Source: Promethearchaeota archaeon (GTDB taxonomy: Archaea; Asgardarchaeota; Lokiarchaeia; Sigyniarchaeales; SOKP01). From it: a stretch of 64,000 bases of DNA. Every line of letters starts with the position of its first letter. The first letter of the stretch is position 1. The position numbers and the translations under genes were made by a program. The DNA lies in assembly GCA_016839555.1 (NCBI GenBank), contig JAEOUA010000012.1:1-64000 (forward strand), in the 5' to 3' direction. The notes beneath the pieces were generated by a model that was given only the letters and a program-made list of their open reading frames with translations, was not told where the DNA came from and did not search any database. Shown piece after piece: positions 45,875 through 52,577 of the stretch.

Positions 45875-46036
45875 GTGACCCCCGAATTAGATGACGAATT
45901 AAAAAATGAGATTAGAAAAGGAGTAAAGCTCCAAAAAGTCGATGAGGCGGAGTTAAGAAGGAGGGAAGAAGAGAAAAAAAAGCGACTAGCAGAGCTTGAA
46001 AAAGTAAAACAAGCCCTTGAAAAGCCAAATCCATAA
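45875..46036 (+). CDS. 53-aa WH2-motif microprotein (absent from the ORF track), candidate actin-monomer-binding protein
   Basis: GTG start after AAGGTGTG. Translation MTPELDDELKNEIRKGVKLQKVDEAELRRREEEKKKRLAELEKVKQALEKPNP. Purine-rich coding composition in an AT-rich gap; T-tract downstream. Confidence 0.8.
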   Translation: MTPELDDELKNEIRKGVKLQKVDEAELRRREEEKKKRLAELEKVKQALEKPNP

Positions 46037-48580: not shown

Positions 48581-49219
48581 GTGAGTCTTATGCCCATTTT
48601 AACGAGTGAAGATGAATTAGATTTATCAAAATTAGAAAATGAATTAGCTAATGAATTAGAAAACCATGCGAAGGCAGAAAATAAAGTAGTTAAAGCAAGA
48701 AAAAAATTAGCCGAAAAAGTAACTGATATGTATATTACACGAGGATCCTTTAACAGAACTATGCGAGATGTGTTAAAACAAATACAGATGCTCGCCCGAG
48801 AACATAAATCAAACGTGAAAGAGGAAGATGTTAATGCCCTCACAGATCTAATAAAAAGAAGCGAAATAAATCTCGAAGCACATAAAAAATATGTTGATGT
48901 GATCAAAGAATTAACCTTAAGAAAGGATTATATGATTGAAAAGCAAATTGAATTTGCTCAAGCTTTAAAAATTGTTGCCGATAGAAGAAAGGTAGTAATT
49001 AAAAAAGCTTTAGATGTTGAAAAGATAAAAAATAAGATGGTAGAAGGCGATAAATTAAAAGAATTGGATCAAGAACAAAAAGATAAACAGAGAGAATTCG
49101 ATAGAGCAAGGGATATTCTCCTAAAAAAAATTGAGCAATTTAAAGATGTGTGCGATGAGATTCAATCAGATCTCTCGAAAAATAAAGATATTCTTAGCGA
49201 TCCCCATGCCTATTTATAA
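48581..49219 (+). CDS. All-helical coiled-coil protein, BAR-domain-like
   Basis: ~210 aa forming three long amphipathic helices with a basic tip RRKVVIKK...KIKNK. DKLKEL...REFDRARDILLKKIEQF resembles SNX/Vps5-type BAR helix 3. Fold is inferred. Confidence 0.55.
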   Translation: MSLMPILTSEDELDLSKLENELANELENHAKAENKVVKARKKLAEKVTDMYITRGSFNRTMRDVLKQIQMLAREHKSNVKEEDVNALTDLIKRSEINLEAHKKYVDVIKELTLRKDYMIEKQIEFAQALKIVADRRKVVIKKALDVEKIKNKMVEGDKLKELDQEQKDKQREFDRARDILLKKIEQFKDVCDEIQSDLSKNKDILSDPHAYL

Positions 49220-49526
49220 TTAGTATTTCCGTTTGCTAAATCTTAATGTTTTCACAATCACTTTCTCTCATATTCCTTTTTTCTTATTATTTCTAATTAA
49301 AATTAATTCATTAAAAAAATGGAGTAATTCATCGAATTATTTCCTTAGATAAACTCATTTTTATGTTGACATAAAAGAATAAGGAATATAGGATAAAGAT
49401 TAAATATAAATATAAAAATTAATATAAAATAATAGTAGATTAAAAATAGTAAATGGGAATAAAATTAGAAAAAATTATTTTTAATTTATCCTAAATAAAG
49501 AAAACGAGAAAAAAAGGAGTATTAAA

Positions 49527-50009
49527 ATGGCAGAAGAATTCACACGCTACTTAGAAGAAGCCAGAAAGGAACCTTTGGAACAAAAGGTGAATGACTTTGG
49601 CGAAATTGTAGAAAAAATAATGCGTATTATCCTTAAAATCCCTGATTTAGTGGATCAATCACTTGGGAGAATGAACCAAAAAATATCCGCATTAGAATCT
49701 AACATTAATCGATTAAATAATCAAATATCAAGCGGTCAACCATCAGCTGGTGGTTCAGCACCAGAGATTGGTGCCTCAGTACCGAAAGCTAGTGTCTCAT
49801 CACTTTCAGCCCCAAGTGGTCCTCCGGGAACACCCCCACCCTCAAGTGGTCCTCCGGGAACACCACCTCCTTCGGGCGGTCCCCCAGGTGGTCCCCCAGG
49901 AGGTCCTCCAGGTGGCTCACCAAGACCAGCTGGGCCTGTATCATTACGAGGGGCTATTATGAGTGAATTAAAAGAATTGTTCGCAAAGAGACAGCAATCT
50001 CAAGGCTAA
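49527..50009 (+). CDS. Coiled-coil + polyproline + C-terminal WH2/FAB-like helix protein (candidate actin assembly factor)
   Basis: AAGGAG before the ATG; heptad coiled coil in aa ~15-68; GPPGTPPP x2 and GGPP x3; ends LRGAIMSELKELFAKR. Confidence 0.7.
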   Translation: MAEEFTRYLEEARKEPLEQKVNDFGEIVEKIMRIILKIPDLVDQSLGRMNQKISALESNINRLNNQISSGQPSAGGSAPEIGASVPKASVSSLSAPSGPPGTPPPSSGPPGTPPPSGGPPGGPPGGPPGGSPRPAGPVSLRGAIMSELKELFAKRQQSQG

Positions 50010-50254: not shown

Positions 50255-51994
50255 TTGTCTAAATTTGGAACAATTACTGACTCGAACAAAAATGTGAAGG
50301 TTCATCACGATCTGATGCGACAAGTCTTAGAAATTCTGTCCCTCATTAGAGTGATGAATAATTATTATTATAAAAAAAAAGAAATTCAAGAGAAGATTAG
50401 ACCTACCATCTCCTCTTTTATCTATGAATTAAAAGGATTAGAGAAAAACAAGGACTGGCTTTTTAGTATTCCTTCCGTATTAAGTACTATTAATCAAGAA
50501 TTTGTCAACAAAAACGATTCCTTTCGATTTCCAGACGGTATTATCCTTTTTGAAGCATGGATGAATTTAGGTCTCGAAAGTTTATATCCGCAGATTGTAT
50601 TTTGCTTTAAGGTTCCTGGTTTTCTTAAAGGTGAGAAATCTCGATATATTTTTCAGTTTGTTTTTTCCATATCACGAGGAATTGGATTCCCGATCTATTT
50701 TTCTCCAGAATATTATAATTATACTCCTAAATTTTTGAAATATCTAAATCCTCTATTTAAATGGATTTATAAAATTTCCCATTTTAACAATATTCTTATA
50801 AAAGGAGCGATTGAAAATAGATTAAATACAAAACGGCATCATCCTGGTGAATTCGAATCGGTAATTATTTCTGAATTTGAGAATAATATCTATAAAGGAA
50901 TTAATACTCTCTTTCATGGCTATTTTACGAATGAACCAAAACTATTAGGTAAGTTCAATTCTTTAAATGAAGTCTTAGAAAAGATTATTTTTTCTTATAG
51001 AATTGGAGACCATGCGATGTGTGTACTGAATGCTTCTGATAAGGATATGCCCTATCTTAACATTCCTTTAGTCGATTACAAGTTAATAAAACAAAGATAT
51101 GAAGTAGATTTCTATTCATATATTGAAAAATTAATGAATGTAAATAATCTTCTATCCAAAAAAAGCGATTATTATTATAGAAAAGGAAAATACCTTATAT
51201 TAAATCTCCCTCTTGTGGAAAAATTTAAATTTTTGTTTTATATTATAAAAAAGATATTTCTTCCAACCCAAAAGATACCAGATAAATTTGAAAATATTGA
51301 AAATTACCATAAACATAAACATTTACTCGAACATTTACGAAATTTATTATGGACCACACCCTTATATTGCCACACAATCCATGATCCTTCTAGAATAAAA
51401 GAAATTTTTAAGTTTTCCCAAAAACCGGAGGAGTTAGATGAATTTGAATATGAAATAACTTCCAGAGAGTCAATTTTTTTCTCTTTTATAAAATCGTTTG
51501 AAAAAGAAAAACAATTTAGATTTGAGAATGAAGAAGTAATCAATGCATTGGGAGATTTACGAGATAGCATGGCTAAGATGTGGTTATATTTTAGGGAAAG
51601 ACATTTCAACTCCGCTATTAGAAAATTGAATACGCTTGTAAATCTCTCAGTAGATAATAAAAATTACAAAAGCATTATAAAACAAACCATTAAACAATTA
51701 ATTCCAATCATGGCAGTGTATGAAATTTTCATCAGACCTTTGTCGAATTCTTTCTTTCCAGAATCAATTCCCCAAACTAAGCGTTTAGGTGCTTACCTTG
51801 CAAAATTTTTTACCTCAAAATATAATCCTCTGGGTCTGAGTTTAATTAATTTTTTTAATAAACTCGCATATCGAAATTGGGCAAATCTGGTATTGAATAA
51901 AAAACTAAATAGAAGAGAATTTTTCAATTTAATAGTTAAATTACCAATTTGGAAACATATCCCAAATTATATCCGGGACTTCGTATTAGATTGA
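50255..51994 (+). CDS. Large hypothetical, mostly helical protein
   Basis: 579-aa ORF, GGAGG upstream of the TTG; no recognisable motif. Confidence 0.7.
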   Translation: MSKFGTITDSNKNVKVHHDLMRQVLEILSLIRVMNNYYYKKKEIQEKIRPTISSFIYELKGLEKNKDWLFSIPSVLSTINQEFVNKNDSFRFPDGIILFEAWMNLGLESLYPQIVFCFKVPGFLKGEKSRYIFQFVFSISRGIGFPIYFSPEYYNYTPKFLKYLNPLFKWIYKISHFNNILIKGAIENRLNTKRHHPGEFESVIISEFENNIYKGINTLFHGYFTNEPKLLGKFNSLNEVLEKIIFSYRIGDHAMCVLNASDKDMPYLNIPLVDYKLIKQRYEVDFYSYIEKLMNVNNLLSKKSDYYYRKGKYLILNLPLVEKFKFLFYIIKKIFLPTQKIPDKFENIENYHKHKHLLEHLRNLLWTTPLYCHTIHDPSRIKEIFKFSQKPEELDEFEYEITSRESIFFSFIKSFEKEKQFRFENEEVINALGDLRDSMAKMWLYFRERHFNSAIRKLNTLVNLSVDNKNYKSIIKQTIKQLIPIMAVYEIFIRPLSNSFFPESIPQTKRLGAYLAKFFTSKYNPLGLSLINFFNKLAYRNWANLVLNKKLNRREFFNLIVKLPIWKHIPNYIRDFVLD

Positions 51995-51995
51995 C

Positions 51996-52577
51996 TTAAA
52001 ATTCTAAAAAACCAGGGTCATCAAATAAATCTTCTATATCTTTCTTCTTTTTGATCCCCGTTTCTTCGTGCTCTGAAAACAAACTATCCTCATCTGTTTT
52101 AATACCTGATTCTAATTCGCTAGTTTCTAATTCAAGTAAAGCATCCTTCTCCAAGCTTTTATATTTGCTACTTTTTTCTTTCCATTCTTGTATCTCGTCC
52201 ATATCATAATCTCCCTCATCTAAAAGTTGCGCGGCTTTTACTCTACAAAGATCCGATAAGATTGAAAACGCAAATGCCAACTCTCCCCACTCTTTGTTCT
52301 CTTTTAATTTATTGATTCGCTTTTTTAACCGCTGAATCTCTTGCTCAGCATAATATATATCGATAAAATCTCCAAAAGCATCCACAGGTTCGGAAATTGA
52401 ATTAATTAACACTTCTTTTTCTAAACCACAATTTCCACACTTAACTGTGGCAAAACCTCCCTTCTCTCGTAGATTCTCTACTTTAACTGATTTTTCCCCG
52501 CATTGGGGGCATGTAAAAATTTTTGGGAGTTTTTTAACTCTCCGATAAGTGGTTTGTTTTCGTTTACGACGCCCCAT
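51996..52577 (-). CDS. elf1: Transcription elongation factor Elf1 with long C-terminal extension
   Basis: MGRRKRK...LPKIFTCPQCG...CGNCG...EPVDAFGDFID; AAGGAG upstream. Confidence 0.9.
   Translation of the reverse strand: MGRRKRKQTTYRRVKKLPKIFTCPQCGEKSVKVENLREKGGFATVKCGNCGLEKEVLINSISEPVDAFGDFIDIYYAEQEIQRLKKRINKLKENKEWGELAFAFSILSDLCRVKAAQLLDEGDYDMDEIQEWKEKSSKYKSLEKDALLELETSELESGIKTDEDSLFSEHEETGIKKKKDIEDLFDDPGFLEF

Follow-up and report, generated by a model that had tools for sequence, protein, structure and literature searches.

The gene at positions 49527..50009 raises the question of what a 160-amino acid (aa) protein, composed of a long helix, a proline-rich linker and a short terminal helix, may do in an Asgard archaeon. 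It is located on the forward strand of the DNA stretch analysed here (64,000 nucleotides (nt), positions 1 to 64,000 of contig JAEOUA010000012.1, Promethearchaeota archaeon assembly GCA_016839555.1), hereafter called the window. A first-pass annotation had proposed that the product (P0001) resembles a minimal VASP or WAVE/WASH-type factor with an N-terminal coiled coil similar to BRK1/HSPC300. We found that the protein is a real, conserved and expressed member of an unannotated Asgard family. Judging by sequence comparisons, it most likely represents a free-standing paralogue of the tail that a group of Arf/Gtr1-RagA-like GTPases of the Loki order has at the C-terminus, and the kinship indicated by our tests is to these tails and not to Ena/VASP, WAVE/WASH or BRK1. 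Our confidence in the homology with the GTPase tails is much higher than that in any mechanism deduced from it.

Relationship to the tails of Arf/Rag-like GTPases

The whole module was detected at the C-terminus of five proteins of 394-464 aa, which matched positions 11-142 of the family profile (whole-library E-values of 9e-15 to 3e-8). In a local test against this profile, the fused proteins gave E-values of 1e-17 to 1e-23 and were again aligned from position 11 on. Their N-terminal parts comprise a HhH-like region followed by an Arf/Gtr1_RagA G domain (Pfam E-values of 1e-19 to 1e-24), and they end in SLRGAIMGELKELFAKKK-type helices and variants thereof. One of them is the NCBI entry MHA1681664.1, named 'ADP-ribosylation factor-like protein', and the G domain of the tail-bearing GTPases is by sequence closest to Arf/Arl structures. 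Free and fused forms have in common a homologous stalk helix, a flexible linker and a terminal h..ELK.hF.K+ helix, arranged in the same order. They differ in that the free protein lacks the G domain and the HhH-like region and possesses an additional, invariant AEEF cap. Neither the translation nor Pfam disclosed a P-loop or G domain in the 160-aa protein.

The genome under study contains both forms. A GTPase of 515 aa (contig C4:29631-31178) exhibits the stalk helix, the sequence HPPPPPPK and NIRVSMLSELKDLFVKRG, and a paralogue of 282 aa, located 4 kb from it, has a stalk and a degenerate end. When the 4,059 open reading frames (ORFs) of this genome were searched with the C-terminal profile, only P0001 and the 515-aa GTPase were obtained at E<0.01. 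The C4 region (C4:28134-37291) is rich in GTPase genes, since within 8 kb it harbors the 515-aa GTPase, its 282-aa paralogue and proteins of 349 aa and 367 aa, the former having an extra N-terminal region before its GTPase domain, the latter being a coiled coil. A profilin-like gene lies approximately 22 kb further along the same contig.

Out of 29 related Loki-order GTPase ORFs, 21 have h..ELK.hF.K+ at their end, preceded by a flexible linker, in many cases one that is not rich in proline. The remaining eight comprise two with a degenerate copy of the motif, one cut by a contig end and five with a globular C-terminal domain. The Arf/Rag-like G-domain subfamily was accordingly seen with two alternative C-termini, either the tail of stalk, linker and helix or the globular domain (loci L111, L113, L114, L118 and L119), which by eye only looked roadblock-like.

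In five genomes of Odin-, Thor- and other lineages, the motif is carried by the free protein only. Thus, the free form is widespread and occurs phylum-wide, whereas the fused tail is a feature seen only in the Loki order. Proline-rich or coiled-coil tails are not mentioned in two studies on Asgard Arf GTPases (PMC11914678; bioRxiv 2024.02.28.582541). The tail, made up of stalk, spacer and ELK.LF helix, is a previously undescribed module.

Layout of the protein and distribution of the family

The tripartite protein described in the first-pass annotation was confirmed. Translation of its ORF yields exactly the quoted protein of 160 aa, and all three quoted segments are present, namely SLGRMNQKISALESNINRLNNQISSG (residues 45-70), the GPPGTPPP/GGPP repeats (residues 98-130) and GAIMSELKELFAKR (residues 142-155). 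A possible ribosome-binding site, GGAG (49516..49519, forward strand like all features of the gene), lies 7 nt 5' of the ATG. The leader is very AT-rich, and in the Pro/Gly tract the GC content climbs from ~0.2-0.35 to 0.55-0.58. The structure was modelled as an AlphaFold2 monomer on an alignment of 30 sequences, which gave a low predicted template modelling score (pTM) of 0.29. It predicted helices at residues 2-13 and 17-68, with predicted local distance difference test (pLDDT) values of 93-96, disorder from about residue 69 to 139 (pLDDT <50 for most of it) and a last helix at residues 140-158 (pLDDT ~80-86).

The first helix (49530..49565, AEEFtrYLEEar) forms an acidic/aromatic cap, whose AEEF is invariant in the Loki order and which is missing from the GTPase-fused versions, as these match the profile only from position 11 on. 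The following stalk (49575..49730) is nearly invariant at residues 17-46 and heptad-like at residues 47-68. It is supported by the model, by conservation, by matches to coiled-coil-type chains in the PDB and by its counterparts in the GTPase tails. The 'coiled coil' of the first-pass annotation is predicted as a single long helix, which may oligomerise. The disordered G/P/S/A linker (residues 69-139, 49731..49943) ends in a conserved RPAxPxS and differs between lineages of the family in length and composition. It contains the Pro/Gly repeats (residues 96-131, 49812..49919), GPPGTPPPS twice and then GGPP three to four times. A PPPPP(P) run occupies this position in the majority of Loki-order relatives. 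The sequence aagtggtcctccgggaacacc... is present in two tandem copies of 30 nt (49814..49873), which encode SGPPGTPPPS twice; the extra copy does not occur in relatives and represents a local duplication by which the protein became longer than most of them. The terminal cationic amphipathic helix, LRGAIMSELKELFAKRQQS (residues 140-158, 49944..50000), includes at residues 144-155 the sequence IMSELKELFAKR, i.e., the h..ELK.hF.K+ motif behind the flexible linker.

A Pfam family above threshold was not found for the protein, and the weak matches to GIT1_C, DUF2076, YwqH and FlgN were dismissed as coiled-coil or low-complexity noise. Foldseek with the monomer model gave no PDB match, as expected for one long helix plus disorder. 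The neighbours in a language-model atlas were Asgard clusters only, none of them with a Pfam family.

By a word-indexed search, at least 191 homologues of 136-186 aa were obtained, all of them 'hypothetical', with source names of Loki/Promethearchaeota, Thor- and Hodarchaeota. A deep search, for which the profile of a phylum-wide alignment was run against 1.84 billion representatives, revealed 596 matches at E<=1e-3, part of which are coiled-coil noise. The Loki-based profile detected the family in 152 of 301 sampled Asgard genomes, and it is present in all 64 of the 64 near-complete genomes of the taxonomic family to which this genome belongs. The gene is single-copy in this genome. In a genome belonging to another family of the same class, we observed tandem paralogues of 130 and 147 aa (L028:3998-4833, G240:C93), which overlap by one base from stop to start.

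Residues 1-46 and 133-155 hardly vary among 121 homologues. The terminal helix, whose lack of conservation would have spoken against the first-pass annotation, is nearly invariant, with the core h..ELK.hF.K+ and, phylum-wide, R..h..ELK.L[FL]..[KR]. In distant Asgard members the plan is the same: the N-terminus is acidic/aromatic, and the long helix is followed by a P/S/A/T/G linker and the terminal helix. Their linkers are mostly not polyproline, indicating that the PPPPP(P)/GPPG tract is an elaboration of the Loki order and does not define the family. The proline tract noted in the first-pass annotation is therefore real in this protein and in the Loki order, but it is lacking in distant members and in many GTPase tails, whose linkers consist of P/S/A/T.

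Comparison with actin-assembly factors

The proposed likeness to BRK1 did not exceed chance level. BRICK1 was retrieved from the PDB with an E-value of 0.54 at about rank 48, behind ~47 generic, mostly trimeric coiled coils. What the protein has in common with BRK1/HSPC300 and the WAVE/WASH bundle is a short helical segment with heptad-like spacing; it has no WAVE homology domain and no VCA region. Pfam gave no match to a WAVE/WASH homology domain in the 160-aa protein. A C-terminus of the VCA/WAVE type was likewise not borne out, as a WH2 match is missing and the end of the protein is basic (KRQQSQG), without an acidic or tryptophan motif.

The resemblance to the F-actin-binding (FAB) helix of VASP required a closer look at the residues involved. 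For comparison, real VASPs carrying WH1 and VASP_tetra domains were fetched at 100% identity. They aligned in register with the C-terminal profile of the family (G-L/I-M-x-E-h-x-x-h-h-A-+-R-+) and scored at most 8.3 bits, below chance ORFs of the own genome at 10.0-10.4 bits. With hhalign, the terminal helix of the whole family matched the VASP FAB with a probability of 75% (P 2.5e-5), and 0 of 300 column shuffles of the helix block reached the observed score. The resemblance thus lies in the order of the residues and not just in their composition. It is strong only in a Thor-like branch (GGLMGELKxLLAARRKK; probability 95%, P 6e-8), whose members took ranks 1-5 of 4,087 with a VASP-FAB hidden Markov model (HMM). 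For the Loki order, it is weak (probability 24%, P 8e-4), the protein studied here being ranked 246 of 4,087 with the same HMM, and for the remaining lineages it is absent (probability 1.6%). From these sequence data the FAB likeness looks like a trait derived in one branch or like convergence of short basic amphipathic helices, and not like an ancestral link.

Further domains of the Ena/VASP proteins were searched for in the 160-aa protein. There was no match to EVH1 (WH1, PF00568) at E<=1 or to WH2 (PF02205) at E<=10, no Pfam match to VASP_tetra (PF08776), and no WH2 chain among the PDB matches of the C-terminal profile. The VASP FAB was not present in any PDB chain. The protein and the EVH2 region of Ena/VASP have in common a helix that oligomerises or is predicted to do so, a tract rich in proline and an amphipathic helix that is short and basic. 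In contrast to Ena/VASP, the protein lacks EVH1, the G-actin-binding (GAB)/WH2 segment and the VASP tetramerisation domain, and carries its long helix N-terminally, so that the order of the parts is reversed. Actin binding is hypothetical here.

Properties of the terminal helix

HeliQuest-type calculations gave family means for the terminal helix of 0.25 for the hydrophobicity (H), 0.34 for the hydrophobic moment (muH), ~+3 for the charge (z) and ~1.25 for the discriminant factor (D). The helix of the protein studied here exhibited H 0.28, muH 0.31, z +2 and D 0.95, moderate values that are compatible with lipid binding. The family means fall into the window that has been used for Asgard Arf membrane helices (PMC11914678), and archaeal-type lipids were reported to be permissive for the adsorption of amphipathic helices (bioRxiv 2024.02.28.582541).

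As in the membrane-targeting helices at the N-terminus of the small GTPases Arf/Sar and at the C-terminus of the P-loop ATPase MinD, a short cationic amphipathic helix is found at the end of the protein. Its L-K-x-L-F-x-K-K-like pattern presumably resembles Arf1 and MinD sequences. In contrast to these, it is placed behind a 70-residue flexible linker and a stalk and not directly on a nucleotide-binding domain; an invariant E-L-K triplet and arginines in the hydrophobic face are also unusual for a pure lipid anchor.

Gene neighbourhood

In the Loki order the gene resides in a block composed of Pelota, a radical SAM gene, a gene for a ~207-aa protein, the family gene, an optional gene for a ~578-aa protein of unknown function and, on the opposite strand, an Elf1-like gene. 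In the window, the upstream neighbour (48581..49219, forward strand), identified by synteny, encodes 212 aa, which were modelled as a long three-helix bundle of BAR-like shape (pLDDT 91, pTM 0.77). This 207-212-aa protein is restricted to the Loki order, where it was found in 24 of 25 and in one of two genomes of two families; none was present in other families (151 genomes sampled). Within this taxonomic family, its gene and the family gene adjoin each other in nearly every genome, with the order swapped once; in Lokiarchaeum ossiferum-like or MK-D1-like genomes the two are not adjacent. Its fold matches were weak (E 0.03-0.2, template modelling (TM) scores of 0.45-0.60) and mostly to the BAR superfamily (BAR, F-BAR, I-BAR and arfaptin). 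Unrelated three-helix bundles matched equally well, the best BAR match (E 0.03) not being significant, and the language-model neighbours included FAM92/BAR clusters at 0.81-0.86. According to the model the neighbour is BAR-like in shape, while membership in the BAR superfamily is not established.

The arrangement recalls MIM/ABBA, which consists of an I-BAR domain, a proline-rich region and a C-terminal WH2, inasmuch as a gene for a BAR-shaped protein is followed by a gene for a proline-rich linker with an actin-motif-like helix. The IMD of MIM and the I-BAR domain of IRSp53 were among the weak fold matches of the neighbour (TM 0.42-0.52). The arrangement differs from MIM/ABBA in that there are two separate genes, adjacent within one taxonomic family only, that the BAR assignment is not significant and that the terminal helix is not a WH2.

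In distant lineages, the family gene is surrounded by genes for PGM, LarA, a molybdopterin oxidoreductase, PIG-L, DedA/VTT, NUDIX and a tRNA endonuclease. The idea of a phylum-wide operon was abandoned, because these unrelated housekeeping genes give it no support. In the small Odin-like genomes (L020:3117-3854 and L020:4532-5845), a DedA/VTT-domain membrane protein is encoded upstream of the family gene. A co-directional gene 25 nt downstream of the family gene in these genomes encodes a 437-aa protein with a weak CobW-type nucleotide-binding signal; considered as a possible fused GTPase, it proved not to be one.

Other ORFs of the window were also inspected. A 53-aa ORF (45875-46036, forward strand), which sits 3.5 kb upstream of the family gene, contains the invariant segment EL...I.KGV.LQKV, which by eye resembles WH2, and behind it a charged helix. 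Of 40 genomes of this taxonomic family, 35 possess this conserved gene, in every case within the same block of synteny ahead of Pelota; it gave no match to Pfam WH2 at E<=10. Downstream of the family gene, a 579-aa ORF (50255-51994, forward strand) without a Pfam match is kept at the same position in two related loci (551-578 aa) and absent from a third. The gene at 51996-52577 on the reverse strand encodes an Elf1-type zinc ribbon with a helical/acidic C-terminal extension of ~115 aa ending in DLFDDPGFLEF.

Expression in L. ossiferum and Lokiactin co-immunoprecipitation

The orthologue of the family in the L. ossiferum genome (G336) is located at 2,628,799-2,629,257, comprises 152 aa (16.13 kDa) and lies directly downstream of an Elf1-like gene (G336:C1:2628036-2628656). 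By its monoisotopic mass of 24.01 kDa and its position, the product of the latter matches GNAMCCOK_02218, and the actin gene of G336 sits where the tag 03343 predicts. The family orthologue is therefore probably GNAMCCOK_02219. This protein was detected in 16 of 16 published proteomes with a mean log2 intensity of 18.47, the value of profilin-2 being 17.38. Thus, by way of its probable orthologue, the protein is made in L. ossiferum.

In a published co-immunoprecipitation (co-IP) with Lokiactin from L. ossiferum, an 'Arf GTPase', profilin and gelsolins were enriched (bioRxiv 2025.11.30.690169). GNAMCCOK_02219 was not among the co-IP rows of this study down to a log2 ratio of -0.95, which is mild evidence against a stable association with actin. 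The authors note a bias of their experiment against membrane-associated proteins. The enriched 'Arf' (GNAMCCOK_04696, 38.1 kDa) corresponds to a P-loop ORF of 329 aa (G336:C1:5471999-5472988, monoisotopic mass 38.10 kDa), which at 31-39% identity (E 1e-24 to 1e-29) shares its G-domain subfamily with the GTPases that bear the tail. We considered it as a carrier of the tail and rejected it, as it possesses a globular C-terminal domain and no tail. Two 'BAR' proteins (tags 01913 and 03871) are also listed in this co-IP; neither corresponds to the BAR-shaped neighbour, whose homologue in L. ossiferum falls at about tag 2559. The Elf1-like GNAMCCOK_02218, the probable orthologue of the gene in the window, was itself enriched with Lokiactin (log2 ratio 1.36, adjusted p 0.034).

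Discussion

We favour an explanation, to which we give about an even chance, in which the protein is an oligomeric tether or adaptor that offers its cationic amphipathic helix to the target bound by the GTPase tails. The long conserved helix would most likely oligomerise as a coiled-coil stalk and in this way assemble the protein, the homologous GTPase stalks possibly taking part in the assembly. The flexible P/G/S/A spacer would give reach, stiffened by polyproline in the Loki order, and the terminal helices would dock on the target shared with the GTPase tails, for which a membrane surface or a conserved partner close to the membrane is most likely. The BAR-shaped three-helix neighbour, which adjoins the gene in its own taxonomic family, is in favour of such a tether. 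Of this scheme, we infer the oligomerisation, the nature of the docking target and the cooperation or competition with the GTPases.

Several observations weigh against the tether. Oligomerisation of the stalk is suggested by one long helix and by coiled-coil-like matches only, and any binding partner or membrane association of the terminal helix is a prediction. The hydrophobic moment of this helix is only moderate and two arginines interrupt its hydrophobic face; moreover, the invariant E-L-K, being consecutive residues, lie on three different faces, an arrangement better suited to binding in a specific groove of a protein than to mere adsorption on lipid. Outside the Loki order, no GTPase with the tail was found, so that the free protein has to function there without one, and the gene neighbourhoods consist of unrelated housekeeping genes. 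Finally, fused and free forms coexist in one genome. This weakens the Rosetta-stone logic, because the two forms could share the ancestry of a module without cooperating physically.

Were the protein a minimal actin-assembly factor instead, the stalk would oligomerise, the polyproline would recruit profilin-actin and the terminal helix would bind G- or F-actin in the manner of the VASP FAB or of WH2; in an extended form of this explanation, the same tail on Arf/Rag-like GTPases would couple the GTPase switch directly to actin. Both forms appear unlikely to us. The explanation survives as a minority possibility with a small chance, owing to the strikingly FAB-like Thor branch, the residue order that the terminal-helix profile shares with the FAB, the PPPPP(P) runs of Loki-order members, the BAR-shaped neighbour and the conserved, WH2-like 53-aa ORF upstream. 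Moreover, Lokiactin co-precipitates an Arf/Rag-like GTPase whose G domain belongs to the subfamily of the tail-bearing ones (bioRxiv 2025.11.30.690169), and no Asgard filament nucleation machinery has been discovered yet (PMC9433394). However, the co-precipitated GTPase is the one with the globular C-terminal domain, and the probable orthologue GNAMCCOK_02219 is expressed yet missing from the co-IP rows down to a log2 ratio of -0.95. The FAB likeness is weak in this protein and in the Loki order and absent in other lineages, real VASPs score below chance ORFs, and none of the EVH1, WH2 and VASP_tetra domains was matched. Polyproline is conserved neither across the family nor in the GTPase tails, and polyproline is reportedly not bound by some Asgard profilins and only weakly by others.

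The homology of stalk and terminal helix between free and fused forms would also be explained by a regulator or partner, i.e., a free tail acting directly on the Arf/Rag-like GTPases, which we consider possible, if rather doubtful. Its stalk might co-assemble with GTPase stalks and supply a helix to GTPases lacking one, such as the 282-aa paralogue. Alternatively, the terminal helix might act as a decoy by docking on the G domain or compete there with the tails of the GTPases themselves, in analogy to the N-terminal helix of Arf, which is switched by the nucleotide. In favour of a regulator or partner, the tail is complete in one GTPase of this genome and consists of a stalk and a degenerate end in another. 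A high invariance is typical of amphipathic helices that also pack on protein, as the N-terminal helix of Arf does in the GDP form, and the AEEF cap exists only in the free form. On the other hand, lineages with the free protein and no detectable tail-bearing GTPase would need a different partner, and there is no conserved gene adjacency of the free tail with any GTPase. The very high co-conservation of both ends, with a linker free to vary, could instead reflect an intramolecular contact, the terminal helix packing into grooves of its own oligomeric stalk as in a trimer-of-hairpins; the protein would then serve as a structural element or as a conformational switch. Stalks of viral fusion proteins and trimeric coiled coils are among the nearest sequence matches of the stalk. 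Such a self-folding hairpin is nevertheless improbable, given the low pTM of the monomer model and the occurrence of the same terminal helix on GTPases whose stalks differ considerably in sequence. Most improbable of all is docking on another hub, either as a helix resembling an MIT-interacting motif (MIM) on the MIT domain of Vps4, a component of the endosomal sorting complex required for transport (ESCRT), or as a stalk-protein-like peptide on translational GTPases. MIM1/MIM2 and the motifs of archaeal P1 stalk proteins are usually laid out in this way, with a conserved helix at the very end of the chain, preceded by a flexible linker rich in proline, and in the Loki order Pelota is encoded two genes upstream. 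But the MIM1 consensus, (D/E)xxLxxRLxxL(K/R), is not matched, a glutamate taking the place of the key arginine; ESCRT or translation genes are not conserved neighbours across lineages, and the synteny with Pelota is confined to one order and interrupted by the unrelated radical SAM gene.

Asgard archaea encode dozens of eukaryote-like small GTPases. To our knowledge, it is not known how most of them reach membranes or effectors, and only a few Arf-like N-terminal helices have been studied. The tail described here is a module that Arf/Rag-like GTPases carry and that is also used phylum-wide in the form of an abundant free protein. A 20-residue peptide provides a concrete handle on a docking site, lipid or protein, common to these GTPases. 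Should the target be a membrane, the tail would represent a prokaryotic equivalent of the anchors that eukaryotic GTPases have in their hypervariable regions. Should it be actin or profilin, the tail would provide the first Asgard candidate for regulated filament assembly. There is a slim chance that the tail is an actin- or profilin-engaging module deployed both free and fused to GTPases, which together with the BAR-shaped neighbour and the WH2-like 53-aa protein would constitute a primitive GTPase-switchable membrane-actin assembly system. In that case, it would supply the elongation or nucleation machinery so far missing from Asgard archaea, and the FAB of Ena/VASP would have a relic or a parallel in the FAB-like helix of the Thor-like branch. 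A membrane target as well as an actin or profilin target would bear on how the control of membranes and the cytoskeleton was organised before eukaryotes.

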